Under the pieces are notes generated by a model. It ran no database searches, was not told the DNA's origin, and saw only the letters and a program-made list of their open reading frames with translations. Below are positions 39,536-56,598 of a stretch of 64,000 nucleotides of DNA, one piece after another (position 1 is the stretch's first letter; every line of letters begins with the position of its first letter). Source of the stretch: an alpha proteobacterium SCGC AAA536-G10 (GTDB taxonomy: Bacteria > Pseudomonadota > Alphaproteobacteria > Puniceispirillales > Marisalimonadaceae); assembly GCA_000384615.1 (NCBI GenBank), contig ARQU01000003.1, positions 104,751-168,750 of the forward strand. The letters run 5' to 3'. A program made the translations under genes and the position numbers.

Positions 39536-39612
39536 GGCGGAGTAGCTCAGCTGGTTAGAGCACCGGAATCATAATCCGGGTGTCGGGGGTTCAAGTCCCT
39601 CCTCCGCTACCA
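39536..39612 (+). tRNA. tRNA-Met (anticodon CAT; elongator type, Ile2-lysidine type not formally excluded)
   Basis: Hand-folded 77-nt cloverleaf. Acceptor GGCGGAG/CTCCGCT (G1-U72 wobble), D arm GCTC/GAGC, anticodon arm CCGGA-ATCATAA-TCCGG, variable loop GTGTC, T arm GGGGG-TTCAAGT-CCCTC, encoded CCA. It lacks the three consecutive G-C pairs at the base of the anticodon stem that mark initiator tRNAs. Confidence 0.9.
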
Positions 39613-39691
39613 AATAACAATCTGAATAATAAGCCACACCTCACTTGTTATAATTATAGAATCTCAGGATGTTTCATAAAAGTCAAAGCAA

Positions 39692-39707
39692 TTGTGACGG
39701 AGATGTG
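39692..39707 (+). repeat. Left copy of 16-bp direct repeat TTGTGACGGAGATGTG (candidate att core)
   Basis: Exact match to 53363-53378. The word is G+C-balanced in a very AT-rich context, and both copies lie within 80 nt of tRNA-derived repeats. Confidence 0.7.
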
Positions 39708-39790
39708 ACCGGTTTTAATTATTTTTTATCTCTTTTTTAGTAAATTCAAAAACTTAAAAAAAAAAGTTAAATAAATTCTAAATTGGGCCT

Positions 39791-39818
39791 TTTCTGGCGA
39801 TTCATAGCCTGATATAAT
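39791..39818 (+). promoter_or_regulatory. Candidate extended -10 promoter for the alpA-primase operon
   Basis: TGATATAAT (39810-39818) is a TGn-TATAAT extended -10. A weak -35-like TTCTGG lies at 39791-39796 with a 16-nt spacer. Confidence 0.45.
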
Positions 39819-39828
39819 ATAAATGTAA

Positions 39829-39907
39829 GGTGGGGACACCTGGCTGACATACGAGCCCAATCAGTATGGAACAACTTCAATTAACATCGTGGAAGTTGAA
39901 TCCCACC
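39829..39907 (+). ncRNA. Candidate structured RNA / 5' leader upstream of alpA (not a tRNA)
   Basis: Locally G+C-rich ~80-nt segment. The outer pairing is GGTGGG (39829-34) with CCCACC (39902-07). Internal hairpins are GGCT-N8-AGCC and CAACTTC (39872-78) / GAAGTTG (39892-98). It lies directly downstream of the candidate promoter. Confidence 0.3.
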
Positions 39908-39956
39908 CAAAAAAATCGATGCCTAATTTTTAAATTTAATTAAAAAGGAGGGCATT

Positions 39957-40166
39957 ATGGCTCTATTTGAAAATAAAACATACGCAAATGGAAAAGAAAT
40001 TCTTAAATTTTTTGGAGTTACTTCGGAAACAATAAAAGATTGGATGAAGAATAAAGATTTTCCAAAACCTATTACACCAACATCTAAAACAAGATTGTGG
40101 AGATGTTCAGAAATAGAAGATTGGCTTATGGAAATGGAAATAAGACGTGATGATGGAGACCTATAA
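39957..40166 (+). CDS. alpA: AlpA-family helix-turn-helix regulator / excisionase
   Basis: 69 aa with the characteristic ...FPKPI.......W..SEIEDWL... pattern. A strong SD AAGGAGGG precedes it, and its stop overlaps the primase ATG (TAATG). Confidence 0.8.
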   Translation: MALFENKTYANGKEILKFFGVTSETIKDWMKNKDFPKPITPTSKTRLWRCSEIEDWLMEMEIRRDDGDL

Positions 40167-42436
40167 TGCTATCTTTACAGTCTTATGGAAATGCAGCTTT
40201 GAAGTTGTATGAAAATGGTTATATCCCAATTCCAATTAAGCCATTAACAAAAAGACCAATTATTTCTGATTGGCCAAATATTAAGAACGATTATAACCAA
40301 ATTGAAAATCTATCTTCAAAATACCCACATGCAGGTGTGGGTGTTCTATTAAATGATTTAATTGCATTTGATATAGATATTCTAGATGAAACATTATGCC
40401 TCTTGGTAAAAAAAATAATAACTAATGAACTTGGGGATACTATTGAAAGGATTGGCAAATTCCCAAAGAGAGCTCTTTTTTATAGAAGAGTTGGTAAGGA
40501 ATTTAGGAAACAATCCTCTAAGATTTTCAACCTTACAAAGGGTAAAGCTCAATTAGAAATTTTAGCAACTGGCAATCAGTGTATTGCTTTTGGGACACAT
40601 CCAGAAACAAAGCAACCTTATCAATGGATTGAAGACAGTCTCTTAGACATTCACATCCAAGATCTTCCTAGCGTAAATATCAAACAAGTAAAAAATATTA
40701 TTACCCAAACTGAAATACTTTTACGTAATCAGATTGAACCTAAAGAAGAAGTTAGACCAACTATAAAGACAATAATATATGAAACCAAAAAGGAAGAGAG
40801 TTTTAAGGATAAATCCTTAATACGGGGTGCTATAAAACACATAGATCCAGAAGATTATTATACTTGGATAAAGATAGGTTTCGCACTTAAAAAGTATTTT
40901 AAAGATGAAGGCTTTGAAATTTTTGATACTTGGTCAAAATATAAAATAGATGGCTCTCCATGCCCTAATTACTATAATAAAGACTTTAATAGAGAGAAAT
41001 GGAAGTCATTTAATCCAGAAAAAATAGATAAAAGAAACATATTCAAACTTGCAATACAAAATGGCTGGCAAGGAGGTAGTATTTTTGAAATTGAAAGTAA
41101 TACACACACCTCAGTAGCAAAATATCTAAAAAAGCAATTTGAATTAGACGGCCCAATACCAGTCTACGATGAGGGAGAACTTTGGAAATATAATGGTTTG
41201 TGTTGGAAGCTTGTCCCTGATAGTGACTTAAGACAGTTAGTCCATGAACTTGATCAAAAGAAAACCAAATCAGGTAAGTTGATCCATGTAAGCAAACAGT
41301 TTATAGATGGCTGCCTTCATGAATTAATGTCAATGTGTTCGGAGCCAAATTTTTTTGAAGATCAACCAATGGGAGTAAACTGTAAGAACGGTTTTTTGGA
41401 GATATCTTTCGATAAAAAACCACGGTTGTTGGATCACGATCCAAATCATAAGCAAAGATTTATCTTTGATGCCAAATGGGATGATGAAGATTTTATATTT
41501 TCTGGATATTTGAAGAAATTAATAAACGGTTGTTTTTTTGGTTTAGATGAAATTGTCAAAGGTCAATTGATTAGGCTCATTCAACAAATCTTAGGAGTAA
41601 GTATTACTGGAATTGCAACTAAACTTTCTACACCAATGTGTTTTGTCCTATATGGTCCTTCTGCAACTAATGGTAAATCTCAGATCTTAGAATTAGTACG
41701 GTCTCTTTTACCGAAAGATGCTTGTTCATCCATACCTCCTGCTGATTTAGGTAAAGAACAATATTTAATAGAATTAGTTGGTAAAATGGCTAATTTATCT
41801 GATGAGTTATCAGGTGCTAATGCAATACGTTCAGATAAACTTAAAGCAGTTGTAACGGGCGATACTGTAACGGGTAAAAGGGTTTATAAACCAGTATGTT
41901 TATTTAAACCAAATGCTATTCATATATTTGCAACAAATGTTCTTCCTAATTTTAAGGGAGGAGTAGATGAAGGAATTAATAGAAGGGTTAAAGTTATACC
42001 ATTTGATCGATCTATTCCCGTGAATGAGAGAGTACCAAGAATTGCTGAAAAAATTATTTTAAATGAAAAAGATCAATTATTTAAGTTCGCTGTAAAAGGG
42101 GCATTGGATGTTATCGAAAATGATGGCTTTATTATCCCAGATACAGTTGAATTGTCTACAGCTCAATGGTTTGAAGATTCAGACTCAATATTGTATTGGT
42201 TTAAGGAAAATCACCTTCTTGATTTATTGGACAAAAGTAAAAGTAAAAAGGTAGGCATTACAGAGGCATATTCAAAATTTAAAGCACACATGGAGGAAAT
42301 GGGAGAAGGACAATATGTTCCGACTAGAAACAGATTTGCTCAAAGAATTAGGCAATTGGTCAGAGATGATGTTGATCTTGAAATGGGTAGGGACAAATAT
42401 TCTAACTACATAAGATATAAGCAATTGGTGTATTAG
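40166..42436 (+). CDS. Bifunctional primase-polymerase / P4-D5-type SF3 helicase (phage/plasmid primase, P4 family)
   Basis: N-terminal Prim-Pol (YENGYIPIPIKPLTKRPI..W, IAFDIDI acidic motif, HPETKQPYQW) and a PriCT-2-like region (YYTWIKIGFALKKYF...FDTWS). The C-terminal P4-family helicase has Walker A GPSATNGKS, Walker B NLSDE and the INRRVKVIPF tail. Confidence 0.9.
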   Translation: MLSLQSYGNAALKLYENGYIPIPIKPLTKRPIISDWPNIKNDYNQIENLSSKYPHAGVGVLLNDLIAFDIDILDETLCLLVKKIITNELGDTIERIGKFPKRALFYRRVGKEFRKQSSKIFNLTKGKAQLEILATGNQCIAFGTHPETKQPYQWIEDSLLDIHIQDLPSVNIKQVKNIITQTEILLRNQIEPKEEVRPTIKTIIYETKKEESFKDKSLIRGAIKHIDPEDYYTWIKIGFALKKYFKDEGFEIFDTWSKYKIDGSPCPNYYNKDFNREKWKSFNPEKIDKRNIFKLAIQNGWQGGSIFEIESNTHTSVAKYLKKQFELDGPIPVYDEGELWKYNGLCWKLVPDSDLRQLVHELDQKKTKSGKLIHVSKQFIDGCLHELMSMCSEPNFFEDQPMGVNCKNGFLEISFDKKPRLLDHDPNHKQRFIFDAKWDDEDFIFSGYLKKLINGCFFGLDEIVKGQLIRLIQQILGVSITGIATKLSTPMCFVLYGPSATNGKSQILELVRSLLPKDACSSIPPADLGKEQYLIELVGKMANLSDELSGANAIRSDKLKAVVTGDTVTGKRVYKPVCLFKPNAIHIFATNVLPNFKGGVDEGINRRVKVIPFDRSIPVNERVPRIAEKIILNEKDQLFKFAVKGALDVIENDGFIIPDTVELSTAQWFEDSDSILYWFKENHLLDLLDKSKSKKVGITEAYSKFKAHMEEMGEGQYVPTRNRFAQRIRQLVRDDVDLEMGRDKYSNYIRYKQLVY

Positions 42437-42526
42437 TGTATATATTTATCTGATAATTTTTTAATAAGAATAAAACTTGAAAAACTTTTGAGAAAATAAC
42501 CTACACTCCTACACCTGTGTTGCAAT

Positions 42527-42904
42527 TTATTTAATCCAATCTTTACGCCAATTCTTTTCTAAATGACCATGGTCCACGAACCAAGCTTCTAGCTCTTTTA
42601 ATTCACGTCGAATTATTCGTCCTTGCTCTGCTCTGGCTTTAGCTTTTGCTCGTTCTAATTTTGTAAATCTACCATGTTTAGTTTTTGAATCTGCTAATCT
42701 TTTCAAACCTTCCTTGGTCCTTGGGCCTGTGCTCGCACCTCCATGAAGTCTGCAACGACCGACAGGCAGTTTAGCTGGACGTTGACATGGTGTACCTTTT
42801 CGAGTTTTTGCTTCACATCTTTTGCCTTGCCAATTAGGCCCAAAACGCCAAGGTATACCTTTTAAAAGGTTTCTTTTTGTTATCTTGTCAATACCACCAA
42901 TCAT
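42527..42904 (-). CDS. HGGxSTG-domain protein (mobile-element associated, function unknown)
   Basis: 125 aa with CEAKTRKGTPCQRPA...GRCRLHGGASTGPRTKEG, the HGGxSTG signature, followed by a basic helical tail. Confidence 0.75.
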   Translation of the reverse strand: MIGGIDKITKRNLLKGIPWRFGPNWQGKRCEAKTRKGTPCQRPAKLPVGRCRLHGGASTGPRTKEGLKRLADSKTKHGRFTKLERAKAKARAEQGRIIRRELKELEAWFVDHGHLEKNWRKDWIK

Positions 42905-43142
42905 AGGGTTTTATTATACCACAAATTAATATGCTTATCAGCCGGGTGTTTACTTGAAACTAATGCTCATGGTCGGTGAATAATGATCAATCTCATATAA
43001 TTAGACATCAATACAACAAAAATTTTCTTTGGAGGATATGTCAGATAGTTATACATAGAAAAAATACTACTATTAACCCATCCTTACCTTAAAAGATTTA
43101 ATTGTATTTTAAGTAATTAAGTTTTTAATAATTTTTTAAATC

Positions 43143-44063
43143 TCAGGTGCCAACAGCTACCAGACCCAGAACCAACCGCTTCTTTCTAATCCTGTTCTCA
43201 CGCTTAACCGGAGAGTATAAAAACGATCTCATTGAATTTTTATTCACTTTAGTGGATTCAAGTTCTGGCTGCTTATTAAAGGGAAATGAGTATGTAAGAA
43301 TACCCTTGGTGACACTGCTTGTTCTATTTGAATCGTCAGTCGCAACGTTTAAAGTAAGCCTTTCGCTCAAAGTTAGATTAACTCCTGCCTCTGTACCTCT
43401 CTCTTTAAAACCTGCGCCATCAGACCAATTATACCCCCTGGCATATATTTCTGGGTTATAAGCAAAATCAGACTTAAAACTAATGGTATAGTCAAATCCA
43501 TCTAGAGCTGTCTCAGAAATACCTTCGTAAATACGAGTGTCAGTTAGAGCCCTGTAATAGTTAGCTCTTAAACCCACACCGTTACTTAGGGTCTCCGCGC
43601 CAAGCCCCCAACGCTTATGTCCTGAGCTGAACTCATTATCTAAAAATAAATTTGCGCCATAAAGCCAAGTCTCATTATCAGACAAAGTCCTGTAGCCAAG
43701 ACCGATATTCGCAGTGTTCCTTCCATCAACCCTTGATATACTTATTTGGTTAAAAACGGCATCGCTTTCCCCTTCATTAAGCTTGATAACAGCAGTAGCC
43801 TCGCCGCCTGTTTTGTTATCATTATTAAAAACAGAAACGGAAATGTGTTTAAGATTTTCTCCTGTAGCTTTTTCACTCATAGCTGTAGCTAAAGCGTTCA
43901 ATTTTGACACAGCAGCATCAACCAAGGACCCTTTAAGCTTTTTAGTATTAGACGACTGAGCATTTAGAGCATTAATTGGCAAAGTTACGGTAAAAACAAA
44001 CGTCAATAAAACGATGACTTTGTGTATAAAAACAGATTGGCTTTTTCCCATTTTATTCTCCAT
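43143..44063 (-). CDS. Inverse-autotransporter (intimin/invasin-type) beta-barrel domain protein without a passenger
   Basis: Signal peptide (…LPINALNA-QSS). The block VDGRNTANIGLGYR...LYGANLFLDNEFSSGHKRWGLGAE...LRANYY...ALDGFDY...YNPEIYARGY...VNLTLSERLTLNV...LTYSFPF...RSFLYSPVKRENRI aligns by eye with the intimin barrel (ANLGAGQRF..LGYNVFIDQDFSGNNTRLGIGGEY..INGYFR..PANGFDI..YPALGAKLMY..VNYTPIPLVT..RYDLVQRNNNI). The protein ends about 12 aa after the pore-linker motif. Confidence 0.75.
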   Translation of the reverse strand: MENKMGKSQSVFIHKVIVLLTFVFTVTLPINALNAQSSNTKKLKGSLVDAAVSKLNALATAMSEKATGENLKHISVSVFNNDNKTGGEATAVIKLNEGESDAVFNQISISRVDGRNTANIGLGYRTLSDNETWLYGANLFLDNEFSSGHKRWGLGAETLSNGVGLRANYYRALTDTRIYEGISETALDGFDYTISFKSDFAYNPEIYARGYNWSDGAGFKERGTEAGVNLTLSERLTLNVATDDSNRTSSVTKGILTYSFPFNKQPELESTKVNKNSMRSFLYSPVKRENRIRKKRLVLGLVAVGT

Positions 44064-44941
44064 TATTCCGCCTCCACCAAAAACTCAAATCCTCGCTGCA
44101 TAATCCCTGTGACACATCTATCACCGCCACCAACACCACAAGATGCGTGACCATTACTTTTCTGTCGAATTTTACCATTACCTGTTAGAGCAAAACTCAT
44201 TTTGATACGAGAGGTTGTATTGCTTATTATAGGTTGGTAACCAGTCTTAAAAGCCGAGATTCCAAGGAGATAGCGGGTGTCGTTATCTGAAGTTGATTGC
44301 GTGGTTTCCGCACTCAGCGCATATGAGTTATTTACTGCAAAAGTTTTATCATCTGCAGCACGCTCATAATTTGTTGCTCCAGCGTTTGAGGTCCATCTAT
44401 CCTTATCAGAAACCATATAACCAGGATTTGCATTGGCTGCTAAACCACAATCTATTGGTAAATTGGCAAACCCGTTTGCTTCATCAAAACTCTCACCTTC
44501 GAGCGTCCAACAAGTTGTCCCAGCTGTGTCAGATTTGCCACGCCTGTTTGTACTAAATGTGATTACGCCCTTTGAGTATAGTTTGTTTTCAACAAGAAGC
44601 ACGGAGTGCGTATATGTCCCTAACGGTAAAGAAAGATCAACGTTTGGGGCAACTGCGGCTTCACCGCCAAGTTCTACGCGCACTTGACTAGCGACGGCAG
44701 AATAAAACAACTGTTCACACACGGTTTGGTAGTTACTAACTGTTGGTGTTTGCTGGCATAGCCAGACACCGTGTAGGTTTAGGCCCATTGCCTGAGCATC
44801 GTTTTCACACTGGTTACTTGTATCCGTAACCACTCCCGAGCTCACAGTACAGTCAGCAGATTTAGCGGAGCCAACTAACCAAGATTGAGACATAAATAAA
44901 AAAAAGGTCACTATAAACAAATACTTCATATTATACCTCAT
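44063..44941 (-). CDS. Secreted Cys-rich protein of unknown function, translationally coupled to the barrel gene
   Basis: 292 aa with an N-terminal signal peptide (alternative start MKYLF at 44929), 8 Cys, and a Thr/Ser/Asn/Gly-rich beta-type composition. Its stop TAA overlaps the barrel ATG (TAATG at 44061-44065). G+C is high relative to the host (28/60 at 44101-44160). Confidence 0.7.
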   Translation of the reverse strand: MRYNMKYLFIVTFFLFMSQSWLVGSAKSADCTVSSGVVTDTSNQCENDAQAMGLNLHGVWLCQQTPTVSNYQTVCEQLFYSAVASQVRVELGGEAAVAPNVDLSLPLGTYTHSVLLVENKLYSKGVITFSTNRRGKSDTAGTTCWTLEGESFDEANGFANLPIDCGLAANANPGYMVSDKDRWTSNAGATNYERAADDKTFAVNNSYALSAETTQSTSDNDTRYLLGISAFKTGYQPIISNTTSRIKMSFALTGNGKIRQKSNGHASCGVGGGDRCVTGIMQRGFEFLVEAE

Positions 44942-45069
44942 AATTTATACTTAACCTGTTAACGGTATCAATTTAATACACATTTAATTTAAGGCAAGAG
45001 AAATAATCGTAATTTATAAAAAAATTAGTTTTATTAATTTTGATCTAATTTAATTAAAATTATTTTGTA

Positions 45070-46449
45070 TTAATTTATACATTTTGGTTCAAATCCAAAA
45101 TTTCTATCTACAAAATAAGCTGATTTTTTTGATTTCCACATTCCATCATTTGCAACTATGATATGATCTTTGTTTGTGTAGTTCTCAATTAACCAGTCTA
45201 ATGATATAGCCATTTGGTGAGTGTGATATGCGGCATGAGCTTTATCTTTTGTATGATTCCTCATTCCTGATGGATCTTTACGTTTTCTGTATGTTTTAAC
45301 GTCTGTAAGACCTAAGTTAAGTATATCCACAGTTTTATCAATTCTTTGCTTCAATTCTTTTGGAAACTGCTTATAACCCCATAGTTCAGCTATAGCATAT
45401 AGTCCTAGCAAATTGTTTACACCTTGTGAGTGATACCATACATCTCTAACACCTCTGAAACTATTGTTATGAATATATCCGTCCCTGTAAACAACCTTAT
45501 CAGCTTTAGCAATTCCTTTTTGAATCCATCTTGCTACTTGCTCTGGTTTGTTTTTCCAAGCTAAATATGATAAAATACCAATAGTTCCGTCAGCCAATTG
45601 AATAAAACCTCTGGTATGCTTATCTAGCTTCATAGCCTTAATAGCTAACGGTTTGACATATTTTCTGTATAAAGTATCAATATACTCGTCAACAATTTTA
45701 AATTGTTCTTTGGTAAATTGATCTTTCATCAAATATGCTTGTTGCATATAAGTGGCTCCGTATATTTGAGCTTCATGTGGTCTATGCGAGATGCAAGGTT
45801 TAGTACCGTCACCTGTACCATTTCCGTAACATAGTCTATCAACTTTGCCTTGATCTTTTAATTTGCTAATTTCTTTAGAAGTTAATGTATTTAACATGAC
45901 ACTTGCTTCTGCCCAGGCTACCATAACTTCAGCAATAAGTGGACCATGCTCGTCCATTTTGTTATTCACTATTGAATAAACAATAGTTCCATGCAGTAAT
46001 GCTAGTCTATTAGAATGTTTTTCGTGATTAACATATATACTATTTGATCTTAGTTCATGATCCTTGTTCCAATCATACTCAGTAAGTTGCATTAGGTGAT
46101 CATAGTTATTTCCTTGAAGGTCAGGATTTTTTGACTTGCTCACGTGTGTTATAGCAAGATCCATCTCCCAATATGCTTTACCCCAACTTCCATGACCATG
46201 CACACCTTCTAGTGAGCAAGTTTTTTTTGTAAGTTTGTTTGCGAAGAAATATTTTGGAATAACAATATCATTCTTTGGCATTGACGAGATTACTTTTACC
46301 GTTGTTTGGCAACCTATCAATTTTAGTATAATCAGTATAAAAAGAATACCTTTGAAAAAAGATAACCAATATATACCGTAATGAGACATATGCACTTTTT
46401 TCCTAAAAGCTTCACAATAAGACATATGCCATTTGATAATCTGATCCAT
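45070..46449 (-). CDS. Predicted lipoprotein, unknown function; weak resemblance to alginate-lyase/heparinase-type polysaccharide lyases
   Basis: A lipobox-like LKLIGC follows a hydrophobic segment (probable start MSHYG at 46389). The helix-rich body has an FRGVRDVWYHSQGV segment reminiscent of the R...YH catalytic segment of PL5-type lyases. The functional call is speculative. Confidence 0.55.
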   Translation of the reverse strand: MDQIIKWHMSYCEAFRKKVHMSHYGIYWLSFFKGILFILIILKLIGCQTTVKVISSMPKNDIVIPKYFFANKLTKKTCSLEGVHGHGSWGKAYWEMDLAITHVSKSKNPDLQGNNYDHLMQLTEYDWNKDHELRSNSIYVNHEKHSNRLALLHGTIVYSIVNNKMDEHGPLIAEVMVAWAEASVMLNTLTSKEISKLKDQGKVDRLCYGNGTGDGTKPCISHRPHEAQIYGATYMQQAYLMKDQFTKEQFKIVDEYIDTLYRKYVKPLAIKAMKLDKHTRGFIQLADGTIGILSYLAWKNKPEQVARWIQKGIAKADKVVYRDGYIHNNSFRGVRDVWYHSQGVNNLLGLYAIAELWGYKQFPKELKQRIDKTVDILNLGLTDVKTYRKRKDPSGMRNHTKDKAHAAYHTHQMAISLDWLIENYTNKDHIIVANDGMWKSKKSAYFVDRNFGFEPKCIN

Positions 46450-46574
46450 AATATTTTTCTATTTATCATAACAATTTAACTAAATTATCTTTAATTTCAA
46501 ACAAATTTACCTAACAGTAATCTTACCAACGTAACTACCAACTCCAATCCATGCTCTATCGACTACGGTCAATG

Positions 46575-46667
46575 GGCAGACCACCCCTTGACCATTGTCA
46601 TAAGTTGATTAGGAATAGGGTGCAGTAACCCTTCGTTTAATATATTCCTAGCTCGTCAGGCTCATAA
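46575..46667 (+). repeat. Copy 1 of a ~95-nt imperfect direct repeat (integrase-arm-like blocks + tRNA-fMet-like core)
   Basis: Conserved blocks GGCAGACCACCC (46575-86), TTGATTAGG (46605-13), GGTGCA and TAGCTCGTCAGGCTCATAA (46649-67) recur in the same order and spacing at 52308-52398. Confidence 0.7.
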
Positions 46668-47133: not shown

Positions 47134-47205
47134 TTAAATATCTCTAATTAATTATTACTTATCTATCATATCACGTATTTAAATAAATTCATTACGATAT
47201 AGCGA

Positions 47206-49823: not shown

Positions 49824-49851
49824 TTTAGTCTCCTTAGACAACATCATGAGC

Positions 49852-52182
49852 TTAAGCATTTTGTGGTGCTTCTTTAACACCTATTATTGGTGTGGTTTCT
49901 TTTTTATCCTTATCAAGGGCAATCAGCAAAGCAGGGAGCAAAGTCATATCGGCAATTAAAGCTATAACAAGGGCTATGCCTGTTAACATTGCCATATTGC
50001 TGTTCACGCCAAAGGTTGATTGAGCCAGAATAGCAAAACCAGCTGTTAGTATCAGAGTTGTAACAACGAGTGCCGTTCCAACACCTTTGAAAGCCGAAAT
50101 GACAGCATCATGCGCAGACAGTTTTAATTCGCGTCGAGCAATCTGATATTTGCTGAGAAAATGAACACTATCGTCAACCACAACGCCAAGCGCCATACCC
50201 GCAACAACAGCGACAGCCATATTGACCTGCCCCACAAGCAAACCCCAAAGGCCAAAGGCGAGTGCCGCAGGCAGCAAATTAGGTATCAAGCTGATGATTC
50301 CAAGCCGGACATCACGTAAGGCAATTAGAATAACACCACTAATCAGAAAAACAGCAATAAGGGTTCCTAGCAACATACTTTGAATATTACGTTCGGAAAT
50401 ATAGGCAAACATCACAGTAGGTCCGACAGCTGTCAGGTTAAAATCAAGCTCATCCGCAAGGTAGCTTTCAGCCCGAGCAATCCAGGCACGAAGTTCATTC
50501 GTGGTCATATCGTCTATTGTAACAATGACCTGTGTTGATGATTTGCTTATATCAAGTTGATTGTTCAAATCCAAACCGAATGGCAACGATAGCTCATATA
50601 AAAGTAGATATTGGGCGGCAAGTTCGCGCGTATCAGGCACCTGGTAAAAAGCTGGGTCACCAGCGTTCAGATCACGATTAAGACGCTTGAAGGTGTCCGA
50701 AATAGATTGTACATGTGTTACCACAGGCTCATTATTCGCCCAGGCGGTAAAATTAGATACTTTTTCAATAAAGACCGGATCGCTAATACCATTGGATTCG
50801 CCAGTAGGCAAACTAAATTGCACCTGATTGACACCAGTTAGATTGCGACTGATCCAGTCGGTATCTTGACGATACTGGACTGACTCGTCAAAATATTTAA
50901 CAAAGTCATCATTGATTTCATTGAGTGGAATAAGTGACAGAATACTAACTGAGATAATAACACTGGCAGTTAGAACCGACTTATAACGCGAAGCGACGTA
51001 GACACCAAGCTTTCCCATTTTATCATCAAGCCTTGCCAAGGTGGCTTTTGATTTCAGCGGAACGAAGCTAATGAGAATAGGTAATAGAACGATTGAAAAT
51101 ATCCAGGCAGCCATAACACCTATGGCTGTTATATTACCCAGGTCGTGAAACGGTGGGGAATCTGAAAAATTCATCGACAGAAAACCCAGAGCCGTTGTCA
51201 GACTAGTTAGAAAAATAGGTTTACCATTAACTCGTATACTGTAAAGCAAGCTGTCGCGTTGACTATGCCCTGCCCGCATCCGGTTGAACATACTTACCAA
51301 TAAATGGATTGCGTCGGCGACCGCAAGGGTGGTGATAATGGTTGGTGCACTGGCAGATGGAGGCGTTAGGCCAATGCCCATCCACCCACCAGCGCCCATA
51401 GCTACAATGATACTTGGCACAACAACAAACAGCACCAAAAATGTTGCCATTATCGATCTAAGCAATAAATAAGCGACAATTAAAATAACCAAGTACATCG
51501 CCGGCACCAATGTTGCCATGTCTAGCATTGATGATTCCAGAAACGCGTTATTCAGAAATATAACACCTCCCAAGCGAATTTTGACATTATGTTTAGCTTC
51601 GATCTCGGCAGCCATTTCGCGTGCAGCGGCTGCCACAATGGCAACCTCGTCAGCGCTTTTACCTGGCATCTGAATGGTTGCATTTACGGATGTGGCCCGA
51701 TGTTGCTTATCATGAATTTTTCCTTCCAGAGCCGGCTCAGTCGTACTCACACGATCAACCAAAGCTTGTTCATTAGCGTTCATTGACATTGCATCAGTAT
51801 ATAAATCTCGCACAATCAGATCATCACCTTCAACCTCGGTATGCTGATGATTTGACAGGCTATCAACTCGGATGGAAAAAGGAAGTTGCCATGCAATGTC
51901 AGTCAACTCCTCAACAGCGGCCAGCACCTCAGGCGCATTAGCTTTGCCTGAAATTGGATCAACAGCAAAGTTAACGTTATCTATCTTGGTATAGGTCTGC
52001 TGGATTTTTTCAAATGCTTTAAGTTGAGGATTTTCTTTTCCAAAAAACACTCTGTAATCATTGTCAAAATAAAGAAATTGGGTTCCTACGGCAGCAAGCA
52101 AGGATACAGCTGTAATAAGACCTAAAACTAGAAATCTATATTTAAGTATCCACTCGCCGTAAGAGCCATTTTGCTGTGACAT
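49852..52182 (-). CDS. RND-superfamily exporter (MMPL / HpnN-like, COG1033-type)
   Basis: 776 aa. Two 6-TM bundles are each preceded by a large periplasmic loop. The SSD-like TM region is LTSLTTALGFLSM and the second half contains GVVVDDSVHFL. G+C is high (32/60 at 50161-50220). Confidence 0.85.
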   Translation of the reverse strand: MSQQNGSYGEWILKYRFLVLGLITAVSLLAAVGTQFLYFDNDYRVFFGKENPQLKAFEKIQQTYTKIDNVNFAVDPISGKANAPEVLAAVEELTDIAWQLPFSIRVDSLSNHQHTEVEGDDLIVRDLYTDAMSMNANEQALVDRVSTTEPALEGKIHDKQHRATSVNATIQMPGKSADEVAIVAAAAREMAAEIEAKHNVKIRLGGVIFLNNAFLESSMLDMATLVPAMYLVILIVAYLLLRSIMATFLVLFVVVPSIIVAMGAGGWMGIGLTPPSASAPTIITTLAVADAIHLLVSMFNRMRAGHSQRDSLLYSIRVNGKPIFLTSLTTALGFLSMNFSDSPPFHDLGNITAIGVMAAWIFSIVLLPILISFVPLKSKATLARLDDKMGKLGVYVASRYKSVLTASVIISVSILSLIPLNEINDDFVKYFDESVQYRQDTDWISRNLTGVNQVQFSLPTGESNGISDPVFIEKVSNFTAWANNEPVVTHVQSISDTFKRLNRDLNAGDPAFYQVPDTRELAAQYLLLYELSLPFGLDLNNQLDISKSSTQVIVTIDDMTTNELRAWIARAESYLADELDFNLTAVGPTVMFAYISERNIQSMLLGTLIAVFLISGVILIALRDVRLGIISLIPNLLPAALAFGLWGLLVGQVNMAVAVVAGMALGVVVDDSVHFLSKYQIARRELKLSAHDAVISAFKGVGTALVVTTLILTAGFAILAQSTFGVNSNMAMLTGIALVIALIADMTLLPALLIALDKDKKETTPIIGVKEAPQNA

Positions 52183-52307
52183 TAAAGCACCTTTTAAAAT
52201 TACAAACTAAGTTGAAAGTATCGTTGATAAACAATATTCAAGAAATAAATACTTCAACACAAAAAAATACAAAAATAGCTTAATAAGTTAGATTTGCCAA
52301 ATAAATT

Positions 52308-52398
52308 GGCAGACCACCCTTTAACTAAATTTCAATCTTGATTAGGTAATTGGTGCATTTACAAATAAGAATGATTGATTAGCTCGTTAGGCTCATAA
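52308..52398 (+). repeat. Copy 2 of the imperfect direct repeat; tRNA-fMet-like core overlaps the integrase stop codon
   Basis: GGCAGACCACCC (52308-19), TTGATTAGG (52338-46), GGTGCA and TAGCTCGTTAGGCTCATAA (52380-98). The integrase TGA (52393-95, minus strand) lies inside the CTCATAA anticodon-loop equivalent. Confidence 0.7.
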
Positions 52399-53349
52399 TT
52401 TAGCATTAACTTGAACATATCTAAACAACTGACTAGCCGTCTTATGACCACTAATTGATGCAACTTCTGGTACGTTTAATCCTTTTTCAAACATCCTTGA
52501 TATAGCTTCATGCCTTAAATCATGAAAAGTAAAGTCAATTAAGTTTGCTCTATTACGAAGCCTTTCCCAAGATTGTCTTAAAGCTACATCAGTAATAGGG
52601 AACACATGGTCAGTGGTCCGTGGAACTTGGCTCAATATATCTATAGCTTTTTTAGTAAGAGGCACCCATCTTGAACTACCATTCTTTGTTAATGGTAATA
52701 AGACTCTTTGATTATCAATGCCAATATGTTCCCACTTCATGCCTAAAATCTCACTCCGTCTCATTCCTGTTTCAATAGCAAAATCGATAATGAGCCATAG
52801 ATACCAAACCTTTGTTTCAGAGGATGCTCTCTTTAATCTTTCATATTCACCAGGTTTTAATCTTCTTTCTCTTGGAGGATTATTTTTAGGCAGTCTTATT
52901 TTTTCAACTGGATTATCACCTAAGCTCCAACCCCATTCTATACATGCAATGTTCCATGCATGTCTGATCAAAACTAGATCATACTGACAAGCTCGAACTC
53001 CATCCTTAAGTCTTCTGTCCCTAAAAGCAGCCAGAATATGGGGGTGGAGTCTTTCTAAGGGTAAGTTCATAAGATCTTTTTCTTTAAGTAACCTTCTTAA
53101 CCTTTGATCCTCTGAAATGAACCCTCTTTTCTTTGGTGTAATTTCATATTTATATTTTGTGATAAGAGAATGAAGAGTGAATGAATGCTCTTTGATCCTT
53201 GACCATTGACCTGATTGCATTAAGACTTCTTGTTTTTTTGCCCATTTCTGAGCATCTAATTTACTATGAAATGATTTTGATATAGACCCTATGTGTTTGC
53301 TTCTTACTTGTGCTTGCCATAAGTTATTTCTTTTACGAAAACTAGCCAC
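52393..53349 (-). CDS. int: Tyrosine site-specific integrase (intact)
   Basis: 318 aa, GTG start after GGAGGG. N-terminal arm-binding-like MASFRKRNNLWQAQVR. Catalytic residues are in ETGMRRSE (Arg), HDLRHE (His-x-x-Arg), GHKT (His) and LFRYV (Tyr). Confidence 0.9.
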   Translation of the reverse strand: MASFRKRNNLWQAQVRSKHIGSISKSFHSKLDAQKWAKKQEVLMQSGQWSRIKEHSFTLHSLITKYKYEITPKKRGFISEDQRLRRLLKEKDLMNLPLERLHPHILAAFRDRRLKDGVRACQYDLVLIRHAWNIACIEWGWSLGDNPVEKIRLPKNNPPRERRLKPGEYERLKRASSETKVWYLWLIIDFAIETGMRRSEILGMKWEHIGIDNQRVLLPLTKNGSSRWVPLTKKAIDILSQVPRTTDHVFPITDVALRQSWERLRNRANLIDFTFHDLRHEAISRMFEKGLNVPEVASISGHKTASQLFRYVQVNAKL

Positions 53350-53362
53350 TTTTTTCCCTCCG

Positions 53363-53378
53363 TTGTGACGGAGATGTG
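53363..53378 (+). repeat. Right copy of 16-bp direct repeat TTGTGACGGAGATGTG (candidate att core)
   Basis: Exact match to 39692-39707. It overlaps the hairpin CTCCGT-TGTG-ACGGAG (53358-53373) located just upstream of the integrase SD and GTG start. Confidence 0.7.
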
Positions 53379-53430
53379 GCAGCTAATTTACATTAGTAAA
53401 AATATTGTTATTAAACAGAGAGTTATAAGT

Positions 53431-53488
53431 TTAGAGCACCGGAATCATAATCCGGGTGTCGGGGGTTCAAGTCCCTCCTCCGCTACCA
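53431..53488 (+). repeat. Direct repeat 2: exact copy of tRNA-Met positions 39555-39612 (att remnant)
   Basis: 58/58 identity, checked by hand, from the D-loop/D-stem 3' side through CCA. Confidence 0.95.
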
Positions 53489-53538: not shown

Positions 53539-53557
53539 GTTATACACAGTTATACAC
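53539..53557 (+). repeat. Tandem GTTATACAC motifs (candidate integrase arm-type sites)
   Basis: GTTATACAC at 53539-47 and 53549-57 (10-nt phasing), 50 nt after repeat 2. The same doublet follows repeat 3 (56533-41, 56543-51) and precedes it (56344-52, 56357-65). Confidence 0.5.
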
Positions 53558-53570
53558 TAAAATTAGGAAT

Positions 53571-53809
53571 ATGAATAAGAACCTTACAATACAAAGAATT
53601 AATGTATCAAAAGGTCTTTCTTTATATAAAACTTGGCGAAGTCCTTATTATTTTGCTCGAATTTGGGATCCTATTGAAAAAAAATATCGTTAGTAGGGGG
53701 AAGTTTAAGAGATATTCAGATGATGGTTGGTCATAGTTCTCTTCAAACTACTCAGAGATATATTGAAGCAGATAGTCAATCACAAAGGAAAGTAATTGAT
53801 TTGATATGA
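53571..53809 (+). pseudogene. Integrase remnant (N-terminal ~40 codons joined to C-terminal ~35 codons; internal deletion)
   Basis: MNKNLTIQRINVSKGLSLYKTWRSPYYFARIWDPIEKKYR-stop (53571-53693), then ...SLRDIQMMVGHSSLQTTQRYIEADSQSQRKVIDLI-stop (to 53809). The latter is the canonical tyrosine-recombinase C-terminus containing the catalytic RY. Confidence 0.75.
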
Positions 53810-53863
53810 CATAGTGAAAGGAGTAATTATGAGTTCTGTGCTCTTTTCATTACCAGTAAACTT

Positions 53864-54193
53864 TTAACTTAGAATGGTGTCTTCAAGAACTATCCCTCTA
53901 TTACTAAAAGTCTTAATAATCATATCTTCACTCTCCTTAGCATCAATTTCTTTCCAAATAGGAAGGCATGCTTTAAATGCTTTTTCATCTTTATATTCAA
54001 AAACAAAACCTAATCTTGATATATTCTCTTTGTTCCAAATTCTTAAACTTACAAAACGTAATAATCCTAATTTTTTTAATCTTTTGTAGTAAGAATCCTT
54101 TACTTGATCCCACCTTAAACTTGCAAGTTCTAACTCTTTTTCTGACATAAAATCTTGTGTGGTAAAATTAATTAACTTTGGATTAGTTCCCAT
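53864..54193 (-). CDS. Hypothetical protein
   Basis: 109-aa ORF with host-like AT-rich composition. No family recognised. Confidence 0.45.
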   Translation of the reverse strand: MGTNPKLINFTTQDFMSEKELELASLRWDQVKDSYYKRLKKLGLLRFVSLRIWNKENISRLGFVFEYKDEKAFKACLPIWKEIDAKESEDMIIKTFSNRGIVLEDTILS

Positions 54194-54554
54194 AAATTCC
54201 TCTTTTTCGACATTATCTAATTTATTAATGAAAAAATATAATATTAAGAGTTATTTTAATAGTATAATGTTTTCGGACTTACTTTATCTGTATAGTCATT
54301 GGATTTAAATATGATACTAACATTTTTCTTTGTTAATAATTGTTTGATTTAAATTAGAAATCTGGTCTGATAATTCTTTAATATCTAATTCTAATTTATT
54401 AAGTTTATCCTTAAACTCTTTTTCATAATACCTTTCACCATTACTTATTTTTAAATAATTTAATAAAATTACTATCTTTATTATTGAAAAATTATTATGA
54501 ATGCTAAATACATTTTATTTTTTTTTCATATTTTTTATCTTTAATTTAGAGTGG

Positions 54555-55016
54555 TTAAACTCCACTTTTTCTTGGGGGATCCTCTTTTATTTTATTAAAG
54601 ATTGGTGAGGTCTCAAATTTTGCATCTATTTCATTTTTTGAAAAGTATGCTTTTGATCTACAAAAAACTTCCCTCTTTATGTCATACCAAAATGTAGGTG
54701 GGTCAAATGTTCCTCCACCAATACCAGTCATATCTTTGAAAATGTCCGCATTCCAAAAAACTGATGTCCCGCATTCAACACAAAACTTTGTTGCCACTAA
54801 ATTTCCAGATTCCGTTGTATATTCAAATTTTTTTAAATCGCCAGACAATAATTCTACATTTACACTTTTAAAATAGACTGATATGCCAAATGCCGACCCA
54901 GTTCTTAATTGACAATATCTGCAGTGACAAACTGCAGAATGTTCTGGTTTTCCGATTGTTTTATAACGAACATTTCCACATGCACAACCTCCCTTATTTA
55001 ATATTTTATCTGACAT
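54555..55016 (-). CDS. GFA-family (glutathione-dependent formaldehyde-activating / CENP-V-like) zinc protein
   Basis: Zinc-binding Cys pattern GGCACGNVRY...CHCRYCQ...C.ECGT is typical of the GFA domain. Confidence 0.8.
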   Translation of the reverse strand: MSDKILNKGGCACGNVRYKTIGKPEHSAVCHCRYCQLRTGSAFGISVYFKSVNVELLSGDLKKFEYTTESGNLVATKFCVECGTSVFWNADIFKDMTGIGGGTFDPPTFWYDIKREVFCRSKAYFSKNEIDAKFETSPIFNKIKEDPPRKSGV

Positions 55017-55533
55017 AAACTTTCCCTCTAATTAAATAAATTACCTTACTTAAATTTGATTAATAAATATTTATAAGTAAATCATAAAATAAAATTGAAA
55101 TTAAAATGCTTAAATATTAACTAGTAAGGATTAGATCTACTAGTAAGATTTACAACTTTAAAAGAATTACAACCCAAATCAAAACTACTATTAGATACAA
55201 AAAGTTATAGACTTTAGATATTAGTCTTATAAACCATTGATTTATTATTAAAATAGATTTTGGAAAATATTGTCTTTTTTTAAATTAATCTAGAGTAATT
55301 TTATCTTCAACTTTAGTTGTTTTATCTAAATAGGAATTAAATAACTCATCTCTACTAGACTTTGCTTTTTGTGCTTTTTTTAATTTTTTCTCTAATTTTT
55401 ACTCTTGATTATCCATTATCTTAGTAGTGCTTATTCTTATCAATTCATAAATATATAATTTAAATAAATGAGATAAAAAGTAAAACAATTTAATGGAAGA
55501 AGTATATTGAGATAATTTATTAGTCAGAAATAT

Positions 55534-55953
55534 TTAGTAGATTAGTGTTTTGTCAGTACTTAAAACTAAATCTAATAAAGTTTTAGGTAATACTTTTCTG
55601 ATTTTTTTTCCTTTTAAGTCTAAATTTGTAACTCCTCTGTTTTCACATGACATAGAAGAGACGTAAATGGTTACCCCTTTTTTTGTAAGTACTGCCATAT
55701 GTTCTTTTAATTTGCCTGTTCCAAGACCTACTAAGTTATCAATAATGGTGTTTCTAACAAGTTGAACACCATCGCCGGATAAAAATATTTCCACCTTATG
55801 TCCTTCTTCAACAGCAGTTCTAGCAAGTAAAAAACCTAACATTGATTTAGAAACATTATTAGGACCAGACATAATATGAAATAAAATACTTTCCATTAAA
55901 ATAGTATCTTTAAAAAAATGAACATGATTTTGTATTGCAATCTTGCATTTCAT
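55534..55953 (-). CDS. DsrE/DsrF-like sulfur-relay family protein
   Basis: Probable start MESILF (55896). The pattern GHKVEIFLSGDGV...GVTIYVSSMSCENRGV resembles the DsrE/TusD fold with the conserved Cys. Confidence 0.5.
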   Translation of the reverse strand: MKCKIAIQNHVHFFKDTILMESILFHIMSGPNNVSKSMLGFLLARTAVEEGHKVEIFLSGDGVQLVRNTIIDNLVGLGTGKLKEHMAVLTKKGVTIYVSSMSCENRGVTNLDLKGKKIRKVLPKTLLDLVLSTDKTLIY

Positions 55954-56422
55954 TTTTATTAAAATAATTTTAAATAAAAGTATTTTTTAGAAAAAGATTA
56001 TAAAATTAAAAATTTACTTATGTTAATTAGAAATATGTTAAAAATTTAATCAATAATTTTAATTCAATTTAATACATTTATTAAATCAAATTAATATTCT
56101 AATGCGTTATCAATGTTCTATTAATTTATTTAAGAATCGGGTTAACGTAATGGATTAGACTTTATCAGAAACAAACATTCATAAATACTATTAGTAAACA
56201 TTTAAGGACTACTCAGTATATATAAAAACTTATATTGATAGACTATGAACACCTATTCAAACCACTATAGAAAAGAGTTTAAATGAACCTAAAACGAAAG
56301 ATAAATCTATTAGAAAAATTTAAAGAAAAAATAGACACAAAAAGTTATACACAAGAGTTATACACTTTAAATATTAATCATATAAACTATTGATATTAAT
56401 GATAAATTATATTTAGGAAAAG

Positions 56423-56470
56423 GGAATCATAATCCGGGTGTCGGGGGTTCAAGTCCCTCCTCCGCTACCA
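56423..56470 (+). repeat. Direct repeat 3: exact copy of tRNA-Met positions 39565-39612 (att remnant)
   Basis: 48/48 identity, checked by hand, from the anticodon stem through CCA. Confidence 0.95.
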
Positions 56471-56598
56471 ATAATATCAATAAAATCAATCGTTTGCAAG
56501 GTTTCAAAATAGTCTTGAATTTCTATACTTGAGTTATACACAGTTATACAGTAAAATACAGGACTATCTCTGTAAACAAAATCACACAAAGAATACAG

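Follow-up and report, generated by a model that had tools for sequence, protein, structure and literature searches.

Among the closest described systems to the locus analysed here are the tycheposons of Prochlorococcus, which integrate at tRNA genes, carry partial tRNA copies and occur as stacked elements parted only by a partial tRNA (bioRxiv 10.1101/2020.12.28.424599). [quoted passage not shown] Another path to tandem arrays is that of the streptococcal ICESt1/ICESt3 type, where an element integrates, its recombinase is lost with attL and attR kept, and a second element then integrates at an att site, so that the two lie in tandem (Pavlovic 2004, Bellanger 2011; review PMC5704250); tandems are also known of elements with distantly related integrases of shared specificity (PMC5704250). 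The ssrA-specific genomic islands of Dehalococcoides reportedly lie in tandem at one small-RNA gene and carry niche-specific cargo (PMC3146451).

The locus described here lies in a 64,000-nt stretch of a SAR116 (Puniceispirillales) genome, referred to as the window, and exemplifies, in SAR116, a tandem accretion of the tycheposon-like or CIME (cis-mobilizable element) type. It resembles tycheposons in its integration at a tRNA, its stacked units, the partial tRNA repeats that it carries, the placing of cargo between modules, the broken integrase genes and additional partial tRNAs within islands (as in Hackl et al.), the deep-branching, hard-to-annotate tyrosine recombinase, the jumps next to short tRNA segments, and the architecture of its first island, in which the integrase faces inward from the right end, with AlpA and a primase-helicase at the left. 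Unlike tycheposons, it resides in SAR116 and not in a cyanobacterium, two unrelated integrase families use the same tRNA in the window, and neither capsid nor terminase genes are present in the window's elements. With the ICESt1/ICESt3 CIMEs it shares a recombinase gene adjoining the att site and a decayed unit (island 2) that keeps attL and attR, and the same three-step path is proposed for the array, but the array lacks conjugation and mobilisation genes, its cassettes are much smaller (1-3 kb), and for these we only infer trans-mobilisation. The Dehalococcoides islands differ in target (tmRNA there, tRNA-Met here), integrase family and host. We consider it very probable that tRNA-Met in this SAR116 genome is an integration hot spot at which elements of two unrelated tyrosine-recombinase lineages accrete in tandem.

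The tRNA-Met target and island 1

ARAGORN identified one tRNA in the window, a tRNA-Met(CAT) at 39536-39612 on the plus strand, which scored 67 bits with the Rfam tRNA model. A previous reading, made from the sequence only, had described this gene as followed by exact copies of its last 58 and last 48 nt in the same orientation, which ARAGORN, Rfam and a repeat search confirmed:

39536-39612, plus strand: intact tRNA-Met(CAT), attachment site and attL of the array (ARAGORN, Rfam)
53431-53488, plus strand: partial tRNA copy 2, exact last 58 nt, serving island 1 as attR and island 2 as attL
56423-56470, plus strand: partial tRNA copy 3, exact last 48 nt, serving cassette 2b as attR and the island-3 relic as attL

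A 25-nt core of the tRNA 3′ end, searched with ≤3 mismatches, occurred three times in the window versus 0 times in 100 shuffles, and the same search gave no fourth copy of the tRNA 3′ end in the window. The unit boundaries are direct repeats of the target 3′ end, represented by copies of 77, 58 and 48 nt and one deleted junction. The Dehalococcoides islands are reportedly delimited by direct repeats of the ssrA 3′ end. Upstream of tRNA-Met lies mnmA, and short-read assemblies of relatives break at tRNA-Met.

The interval between the tRNA and the 58-nt copy is occupied by island 1, in which the cargo is framed by an excisionase/replication module on the left and an integrase pointing inward on the right (Pfam). 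The sequence-only reading had missed the intact 318-aa integrase and the AlpA and primase module (39957-42436), as well as a deleted fourth junction at ~55267 described below.

39613-53430: island 1, intact family-B integrative element of 13.8 kb, delimited by tRNA-Met and the 58-nt copy (Pfam, GC)
39692-39707, plus strand: family-B left arm motif TTGTGACGGAGATGTG, conserved in L001 and L002
39957-40166, plus strand: AlpA-type excisionase/regulator, 69 aa (Pfam Phage_AlpA, E 1.2e-5; PHROG excisionase)
40166-42436, plus strand: primase-helicase, 756 aa (Prim-Pol, PriCT_2, D5_N, DUF5906; P4-family primase C-terminus)
42527-52182, minus strand: cargo block, between replication module and integrase
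52393-53349, minus strand: family-B tyrosine integrase, 318 aa, intact (Pfam Phage_integrase, E 1e-26, profile positions 2-170 of 172)
53363-53378, plus strand: family-B right arm motif TTGTGACGGAGATGTG, exact repeat of the left arm

An exact search of the window gave the arm motif, which has the form GTGAC-N6-GTGAC in both arms, twice, just inside the left and the right end of island 1, compared with 0.02 expected by chance. The integrase gene is located 82 nt from copy 2, and its translation contains RRSE, HDLRH and GHK...FRY motifs, making it the likely recombinase of island 1. An integrase with 51% identity occupies the matching position in L004, one of the relatives (L numbers) used for comparison, where the island consists of an HTH protein, an AAA_25 protein, cargo and the integrase adjoining attR. 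The identical protein is found in L125 in a diverged background, with the integrase end of the island showing 99.84% DNA identity versus 74.7% for the core, and island 1 is missing from L117, L118, L120 and L001. Judged by its gene content and these identities, island 1 is intact and shows signs of recent transfer, and on comparative evidence it may be currently active.

The GC content reaches 41-45% at 48-52 kb, versus a background of ~30%. Annotated cargo proteins are an HGGxSTG protein, an inverse-autotransporter beta-domain protein, a DUF2470 protein, a LolA-like protein and an MMPL/RND transporter; those of 292, 459, 130 and 388 aa are without annotation, and PADLOC gave no match to defence systems in the cargo. 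Island 1 is similar to P4-like satellites and PICIs in having an integrase, AlpA and a P4-family primase-helicase and in inserting at a tRNA, but its integrase and primase are at opposite ends and its cargo consists of membrane/transport proteins. Searches with Pfam, PHROGs and PADLOC found no genes for capsid redirection, small terminase, capsid or packaging proteins or helper interference in island 1, although the absence of helper-hijacking genes is not proven, because five of its ORFs are unannotated.

Family-A elements and the cassettes of island 2

Each partial tRNA copy had been described as followed within about 100 nt by the start of a decayed integrase gene, and such starts are indeed located 82 nt after copy 2 and 95 nt after copy 3. 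Both belong to a second family, here called family A, of which full-length representatives follow the tRNA in L089 and L101. The family-A integrase is ~392 aa long, highly divergent and located immediately after the tRNA, and neither Pfam, NCBIfam and PHROGs nor a PDB sequence profile gave a match to it. This divergence is no more than suggestive of the tyrosine-recombinase lineage that is specific to tycheposons. Its AlphaFold2 model (pLDDT 86.8) gave Foldseek matches to XerA, Tn1549 Int, XerH, Cre and lambda Int with E-values of 6e-9 to 1e-5, and 21 family-A sequences share R, K, R, H and Y without variation; on the basis of model and alignment, family A is a genuine tyrosine recombinase. 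The family-A arm GTTATACAC has five exact copies in the window compared with 0.36 expected, flanks family-A units on both sides, and is present after tRNA-Met beside every family-A integrase examined (L089, L102-L107). The tRNA copy was 48 nt long at 5/5 family-A right ends from three genomes, and family-B copies measured 58, ~56 and 72 nt. Two unrelated integrase families are found on one tRNA, each with its own arm motif and copy length. Copying of the tRNA 3′ end by local duplication or unequal crossing-over, with no mobile elements involved, would account for the existence of direct repeats and for nothing further, and we regard it as having a negligible chance of being correct, given that family-specific arm motifs and integrase genes or relics flank each copy, that copy length follows integrase family, and that the intervals hold cargo of foreign composition.

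Copy 3 is followed by the remains of a family-A element, beyond which the core genome resumes:

56471-56969, plus strand: island-3 relic, family-A arm motif and integrase N-terminal pseudogene; rest of the element and attR missing
56533-56551, plus strand: family-A arm motif in the island-3 relic, after copy 3
56566-56807, plus strand: integrase N-terminal pseudogene, 75 codons; start lost (ATG to ATC), two in-frame stops, one frameshift
56970-58187, minus strand: HI0933-like flavoprotein, first core gene past the array, outside the islands (Pfam)

The stop codons and frameshift reported earlier for this pseudogene are both present, with the loss of the start codon in addition. The relic shares 91.9% identity with the full-length integrase locus of L089, a genome with a core identity of only 72.6%, and the downstream order HI0933-like, Ppnp, GFA, GT2 is common to the window and L089. 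Neither the window nor L089 contains an attR for this distal relic, and hence the original downstream edge of the integration site is not defined.

The interval between copies 2 and 3 (island 2), from which a hypothetical, a GFA-family and a DsrE-like protein had been reported, encodes DUF6974, GFA-family and DsrE-like proteins, all on the minus strand:

53539-53557, plus strand: family-A left arm of cassette 2a, GTTATACAC twice (motif search)
53571-53809, plus strand: deletion scar, family-A integrase start fused to the end of a 199-aa recombinase (tblastn)
53864-54193, minus strand: DUF6974 protein, cargo of cassette 2a (Pfam)
54555-55016, minus strand: GFA-family protein, cargo of cassette 2a (Pfam)
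55176-55267, plus strand: degenerate family-A right end of cassette 2a (alignment with L001, L081 and the window copy-3 junction)
55268-56422: cassette 2b, DsrE-like gene and conserved family-A right end
55534-55953, minus strand: DsrE-like gene of cassette 2b (Pfam)
56332-56422: conserved family-A right end of cassette 2b, arm motif at 56344-56365

The scar had been interpreted as an internal deletion in one integrase gene, but tblastn and comparison with L119 showed that two different genes are fused. Positions 53571-53687 correspond to codons 1-39 of the family-A integrase (a 39 aa N-terminal match), whereas 53678-53806 plus the stop codon match the 3′-terminal 43 codons of the gene for a 199-aa tyrosine recombinase, with 43/43 aa identical to residues 157-199 of P0015 (tblastn), and this C-terminus differs from that of family A. 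The fusion point sits in A-rich microhomology, and L119, which retains the remainder of the 199-aa gene, has homology to the window beginning exactly at 53677. No similarity between family A and the 199-aa recombinase family was detected by profile-profile comparison, the only such comparison run. We found no contig with a complete family-A element (integrase, 199-aa recombinase and both att sites), and the precursor of cassette 2a was pieced together from L089, L119 and L094-L097. An integron was also considered; the sole match to the integron-integrase model was the 199-aa recombinase, at 22.9 bits versus a cutoff of 265, and the cassette ends appear to be tRNA-derived direct repeats rather than attC sites.

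The DUF6974 and GFA proteins are both 100% identical in L001, and the cargo DNA of cassette 2a is 99.2% identical, versus 87-96% for the neighbouring core. Alignment with L001, L081 and the copy-3 junction placed a ghost junction after 55267, at which a deletion has removed ~85 nt together with a 48-nt copy of the tRNA; L081 keeps the tRNA copy, followed by sequence beginning at window position 55265. By these alignments, island 2 consists of two cassettes, 2a and 2b, whose junction copy was deleted. It has kept both att copies and the arm motifs on both sides, and the scar is its only recombinase sequence.

Variation at the repeat boundaries and history of the array

The order of these cassettes differs among SAR116 relatives and metagenome contigs, with presence/absence polymorphism at att boundaries in L001, L081, L117, L118, L120, L124 and L125. 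The arrangement is not invariant among related genomes, as its presence/absence variation falls exactly at the repeat boundaries. The order in L001 is tRNA, cassette 2a, 48 nt, cassette B, 48 nt and a family-B left end, and that in L081 is tRNA, cassette B, 48 nt and the start of 2b; L081 is without cassette 2a and L001 has it, with 97.6% identity between their cores. In L117, L118 and L120, island 2 directly follows the tRNA, with no island 1, and across genomes the identity of island 2 is 99.0-99.5% versus 87.7-90.5% for the core.

The many alternative cassette orders in the population, and the metagenome and Logan contigs of relatives that break at or inside the tRNA, are compatible with an assembly chimera, in which islands of different cells were joined through the 48-58-nt repeats in an order present in no single genome, and the exact order in one cell does rest on assembly. 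We consider such a chimera very unlikely, as the single-cell genome L001 has a like three-copy array on one contig, the junction of intB, copy 2 and island 2 was found independently in L124, that of island 2 and copy 3 independently in L117, L120 and L123, and the repeats are shorter than ordinary reads. It is also improbable that the array was built elsewhere and arrived as one composite or a few large blocks. Island 2 (2a, 2b and ghost junction) does move as a 3.0-kb unit with 99% identity in several genomes, and transfer of an accreted CIME-ICE tandem is documented (PMC5704250), but island 1 occurs without island 2 in L125, island 2 without island 1 in L117, L118 and L120, and the sequence after copy 3 differs in every genome. 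Since islands 1 and 2 occur separately and the sequence past copy 3 is variable, the three main blocks are independent, and acquisition en bloc holds for 2a plus 2b only.

Stepwise accretion at the tRNA, which we prefer, retains from the sequence-only reading the repeated integration at one tRNA with decayed relics, but the elements are neither all related nor all decayed, island 1 being intact. That older copies were pushed distally and eroded is too simple, because the cassette orders cannot be produced by proximal insertion alone, and stack position cannot be equated with age.

With 99% identity across genomes whose core is 88-90% identical, and no integrase, island 2 is still spreading, probably via an integrase acting in trans and not by homologous recombination. 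A serious contender, although we give it less than an even chance, is that homologous recombination spreads the integrase-less cassettes, using the tRNA, conserved cassette ends and neighbouring DNA as arms, with the site-specific step having occurred once, long ago. This would fit the gene-conversion-like pattern of cassette 2a, with an interior 99.2% identical between window and L001 and ends of 82-92%, and the DUF6974-GFA block in unrelated backbones, with homology from 53803 (L115, L121, L122). Conversely, the 99% block begins exactly at the tRNA in L117, L118 and L120, and ends 14-20 nt past copy 3 in L117, L120 and L123 (the L118 contig stops inside island 2 and does not cover the distal end), with adjacent core at 88-90%; such edges, at the tRNA and just past copy 3, are expected of an att-delimited unit. 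Trans-mobilisation and homologous recombination are not mutually exclusive.

Repeats, gene content, family-specific arms and copy lengths, scars, presence/absence and order variation among genomes, and element-over-core identities are direct observations, on which we base a model of accretion. Integration events at tRNA-Met, catalysed by the two integrases as we infer, would restore the tRNA and leave a partial copy of it at the element's distal end. Family-B elements have AlpA and the primase-helicase proximal to the tRNA and duplicate 58 nt, and family-A elements have the integrase next to the tRNA, with GTTATACAC x2 arms, and duplicate 48 nt. Later elements would enter at the tRNA itself or perhaps use a partial copy, building a tandem array, while deletions would strip the mobility genes (scar 53571-53809, truncation after 56807, lost junction at 55267), with integrase-less cargo cassettes retaining att copies and arm sites (CIME) as the end state. 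The array in the window reads tRNA, island 1, 58 nt, 2a, deleted junction, 2b, 48 nt, family-A relic and core, with island 1 as the latest arrival. Tentatively, and with some doubt, the small units with the same ~95-nt family-A right arm and 48-nt copy could form a working integron-like cassette system on tRNA-Met att sites, where family-A integrase in trans would excise, reorder and transfer cassettes or blocks between SAR116 lineages. The combinatorial cassette orders in the population, the att-bounded island 2 at 99% identity across genomes with 88-90% core, and the arm sites retained on both sides of units without an integrase would fit such a system.

SAR116 is one of the abundant streamlined surface-ocean clades, and its flexible gene pool is poorly mapped. 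Island building seeded by tRNA genes is well known, and is found here in a clade and integrase family poorly annotated for it; the type known from Prochlorococcus operates in SAR116, at the mnmA-linked tRNA-Met. The arm motifs, core lengths and integrase sequences provide searchable signatures for two element families, and as Pfam, NCBIfam and PHROGs all fail to recognise the family-A integrase, island finders based on integrase annotation will miss such elements. The cargo of decayed-looking relics (GFA, DUF6974, DsrE-like) is nearly identical across diverged lineages, which indicates a circulating gene pool rather than eroding junk.

The tRNA-Met gene and its partial copies

The sole tRNA gene within the window, tRNA-Met(CAT) (Rfam score 67 bits), is followed in the same orientation by exact repeats of its last 58 nt (copy 2) and last 48 nt (copy 3), just as the sequence-only reading had described. 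The 25-nt tRNA core, with up to 3 mismatches, occurred three times in the window and not once in 100 shuffles, and this search gave no fourth copy in the window. The Met label was assigned solely from the CAT anticodon, which is also borne by the lysidine-modified tRNA-Ile2 and by the initiator tRNA.

Features of the tRNA-Met array and its flanks (window positions)
Upstream flank: hexapeptide transferase, class-V aminotransferase, mnmA, glyoxalase-like gene
39536-39612 (+): tRNA-Met(CAT)
39613-53430: island 1
39957-40166: AlpA-type excisionase (island 1)
40166-42436: primase-helicase, 756 aa, Prim-Pol/PriCT_2/D5_N/P4-type (island 1)
42527-42904 (-): HGGxSTG-domain protein, 125 aa (NCBIfam NF041373, E 5e-16), adjoining the island-1 primase
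Island 1, minus strand: cargo block with inverse-autotransporter beta domain, LolA-like protein and MMPL/RND transporter, GC 41-45%
52393-53349 (-): complete tyrosine integrase, 318 aa, gene start 82 nt from copy 2
53431-53488: copy 2 (58 nt)
53571-53687: scar, codons 1-39 of a family-A integrase (N-terminus)
53678-53806: scar, last 43 codons, 43/43 identical to the C-terminus of a 199-aa recombinase (e.g. protein P0015)
Cassette 2a: DUF6974 and GFA genes
Cassette 2b: DsrE-like gene
56423-56470: copy 3 (48 nt)
56471-56969: island-3 relic, arm motif plus 75 family-A integrase codons
Downstream flank: HI0933-like flavoprotein, Ppnp, GFA, GT2 glycosyltransferase

The closest genomes belong to the SAR116 clade (Puniceispirillales), the best match being the single-cell genome AG-335-B03 (L001), with core DNA ~91% identical to the window and homology that begins only at 27610, since the L001 locus starts there. 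The background GC content is ~30%; it falls to 21-26% at ~20000-25000 and 30000-33000, with ~30-35% around them, and these stretches may be further flexible regions. The GFA-family gene of the flank (59245-59646, 133 aa) shares only 32% identity with that of the island (54555-55016, 153 aa), and the island is the source of a second, divergent GFA paralogue of a resident function.

Island 1 and the family-B integrase

Island 1 is an intact element, which the sequence-only reading had overlooked along with its complete 318-aa integrase. The window has just two copies of the 16-nt motif TTGTGACGGAGATGTG (GTGAC-N6-GTGAC), one a short way inside each boundary of island 1. Both arms, motif included, are kept in L001 as well as in L002, a distant member of SAR116; the lineage is here termed family B. 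In L004, another member of the Puniceispirillales, this tRNA likewise has an island of the same layout, 3.9 kb long; it encodes an HTH protein and a replication-type protein (AAA_25), followed by cargo and by an integrase (51% identical to the 318-aa integrase) that adjoins a partial tRNA. The tRNA copy at family-B right ends measures 58 nt in the window, ~56 nt in L002 and 72 nt in L004; copy 2 is attributed to island 1 as its far-end att copy (attR), because copy length tracks integrase family.

The trio of integrase, AlpA and primase is like that of P4-like satellites, from which island 1 differs in that no helper-exploitation genes were seen in it with PHROGs and PADLOC. PADLOC likewise gave no defence genes in the islands, and scans of IMG/VR found neither the family-B integrase nor the family-B arm motif.

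In L002, a distant SAR116 single-cell genome, an integrase-less island of 8.7 kb with hydantoinase A/B and an adenylate cyclase-domain protein lies at the same tRNA, bounded by a 106-nt repeat of the tRNA end and family-B left arm (7175-7280 and 15902-16007), and is followed by a second family-B left end. The L002 locus is a tandem family-B array.

Family-A relics, a two-gene scar and a hidden junction

The integrase-like frames reported after copies 2 and 3 are both real, and belong to a lineage other than that of island 1, family A. Searches with the relic, and then with the reconstructed full-length protein, recovered hundreds of proteins of 392-398 aa from marine metagenomes. In every case examined (L089, L101 and L102-L107, covering several host contexts) the gene starts ~95-100 nt past a tRNA-Met(CAT), and the stretch that separates the two carries a tandem GTTATACA(C) motif. 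Family A had no match in sequence-profile searches of Pfam, NCBIfam, PHROGs or PDB, none among GenBank phages (tblastn), and no profile-profile similarity to the 199-aa recombinase family, the only classical family compared. Its AlphaFold2 model (pLDDT 86.8) matched XerA, Tn1549 Int, XerH, Cre and lambda Int in a fold search (E 6e-9 to 1e-5), and R235, K265, R340, H341 and Y375 are invariant in the alignment; on its predicted fold, where sequence searches gave nothing, family A is a tyrosine recombinase.

The GTTATACAC motif was found five times in the window (0.36 expected), always either on the element side of copy 2 or flanking copy 3, where it lies to both sides. The family-A right ends, five from three genomes, all have a conserved ~95-nt arm followed by exactly 48 nt of tRNA; as copy length tracks family, copy 3 is assigned as attR of a family-A unit. 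The claim of repeated integration of related elements thus holds for the shared tRNA target, but two integrase families were involved, B in island 1 and A in the relics. Four IMG/VR viral contigs with the family-A arm motif were rejected as chance matches in AT-rich DNA, since they had no integrase, tRNA piece or similarity to the window. The family-A-like integrase of L108 (45% identity), the only one on an IMG/VR contig, was uninformative, as this contig is of high GC and lacks a tRNA, and the long contigs with family-A integrases (P0186, P0192) gave no complete element with both att sites.

The sequence after copy 2, previously read as one integrase with an internal deletion, instead consists of two fused genes, the N-terminus of a family-A integrase and the C-terminus of a 199-aa tyrosine recombinase that comprises the catalytic domain only. 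The family-A C-terminus (...AKNAGTSVEQLERFYLKN...) is quite unlike the C-terminal part of this scar, and the two parts overlap in A-rich microhomology. A near-complete 199-aa gene precedes the same cargo block in L119, where homology to the window starts exactly at 53677, and in the marine contigs L094-L097 the 199-aa gene lies ~3.5 kb downstream of a full-length integrase on the same strand, with a G2P-like Rep and four small ORFs between them. In the simplest reading, one deletion would have taken out the whole mobility module and left the cargo behind. L001 shares this scar, with extra lesions, and it is also found in the metagenomic fragments P0007 and P0011.

The 199-aa recombinases (window 53678-53809, L090 10001-10600, L094 7369-7968, L092 4887-5486) lack N-terminal DNA-binding domains. 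A search for them returned 773 clusters, and among the matches listed most were 199-aa members, including one from the SAR116 isolate LSUCC0719; IMG/VR scans gave none. On several contigs they terminate a ~4-kb module that adjoins tRNA-Arg(CCT) and whose other genes are a 409-aa integrase, a rolling-circle Rep of G2P-like type and four small ORFs. A seemingly striking conservation of the C-terminus in truncated 199-aa fragments was rejected, with many synonymous differences in the DNA, and is a selection artefact, as the query held that C-terminus only. A second kind of scar was seen in the metagenome fragment P0005, where a 56-aa family-A N-terminus is joined in frame to a classical, family-B-like C-terminus (...ISGHKD..LFRYTHL). 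Deletions of this kind, in which the start of the integrase next to the tRNA becomes joined to a recombinase further downstream, seem to be recurrent.

The small genes noted between copies 2 and 3 are real, and encode DUF6974, GFA and DsrE-like proteins. Alignment of window 55150-55420 with other family-A right ends showed that the conserved arm continues up to ...GGAAAA, and that at the expected start of the 48-nt copy the window carries sequence that lies ~90 nt past such a copy in L081. Since the att copy is absent at ~55267 in this alignment, the interval (island 2) is made up of two cassettes, and a deletion of ~135 nt removed the copy and joined 2a to 2b. The DUF6974-GFA block (53803-55209) is also 98.7-99% identical in backbones unrelated to the mnmA/tRNA-Met locus (L115, L121, L122); in L115 (GCA_902528415.1, a 170-kb contig) it lies at 6001-7153, flanked by an MGMT-like gene on one side and an FGase/HsdM region on the other, with no tRNA detected nearby.

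The stops and frameshift described after copy 3 were borne out: the relic has two stops and one frameshift, and its start codon is lost as well, with ATC in place of ATG. Beyond the relic, core homology resumes at 56992. No attR follows the relic in the window, nor was one found in L089, where a full-length family-A gene and ~6 kb of cargo precede the core genes that also follow the relic in the window.

Arrangement across genomes and signs of recent movement

An invariant arrangement in relatives would refute repeated integration; the order of units varied among the genomes compared, as listed here. Furthermore, L002, L003 and L004 have islands of their own with a second tRNA-Met copy, and short-read contigs of relatives stop at or inside this tRNA.

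Order of units after the tRNA-Met gene (cassette B is a unit found in L001 and L081)
Window: island 1, 58 nt, 2a, deleted junction, 2b, 48 nt, family-A relic, core
L001: 2a, 48 nt, cassette B, 48 nt, family-B left end
L081 (97.6% core identity to L001): cassette B, 48 nt, start of 2b
L117, L118, L120: island 2 directly, without island 1
L123, L122: 2a/2b, then other cassettes
L124: family-B integrase, copy, island 2, as in the window

Island 2 (53431 to ~56484), scar and hidden junction included, is 99.0-99.5% identical in L117, L118 and L120, where the adjoining core is 87.7-90.5% identical. The high-identity block begins at the tRNA and ends at most 20 nt past copy 3 in the contigs that reach it (L117, L120, L123). 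In the comparison with L001, GFA and DUF6974 show 100% protein identity and the DNA of the cargo interior 99.2%, against 87-96% for neighbouring core genes; cassette 2a as a whole (96.2%) barely exceeds the 1.8-kb core stretch of highest identity (95.7%), and its excess is clear only after splitting by feature and in L117, L118 and L120. L089, with a core at 72.6% identity, matches the island-3 relic at 91.9%. In L125, a 1261-nt stretch that covers the island-1 integrase, its arm and the 58-nt copy reaches 99.84% identity, and the core-like DNA adjoining it only 74.7%. These comparisons provide sequence evidence that integrase-less cassettes still circulate. The 58-nt attR copy of L125 (~1205-1262, reverse-complement coordinates) differs from window 53431-53488 at two anticodon-stem positions, a compensatory pair (C to T and G to A), which if host-derived would put the crossover close to the 5′ boundary of this 58-nt core.

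Island 1 is the latest insertion, because it lies between the intact tRNA and island 2, which elsewhere adjoins the tRNA. The proposal that older copies were pushed distally is too simple for the cassette orders of L001 and L081: cassette 2a and the scar are common to the window and L001 and everything distal to 2a differs, and cassette B is proximal in L081 and second in L001. Plain accretion from a common ancestor, newest proximal and oldest distal, cannot explain all genomes. Any of three processes may be responsible: entry of units at partial, secondary att copies, for which tycheposons provide documented cases (bioRxiv 10.1101/2020.12.28.424599), movement of integrase-less units in trans, or exchange of blocks by homologous recombination.

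The array resembles Prochlorococcus islands and tycheposons in its stacked elements parted by partial tRNAs, its fragmented integrases and its inward-facing integrase with a replication module. Tycheposon-related elements are also reported from Alphaproteobacteria (bioRxiv 10.1101/2020.12.28.424599), and tRNA-Met is among tycheposon targets (PMC10872708). The array also fits the streptococcal accretion model with CIMEs, integrase-less units that keep their att sites (PMC5704250). The feature picked out by the sequence-only reading is thus real, and its interpretation broadly right. A stacked tRNA array is an already known kind of structure; what is added here is its corrected anatomy, in which island 1 is intact, the integrases are of two families, the scar comes from two genes and one junction lies hidden, and in family A an integrase family that standard annotation does not see.
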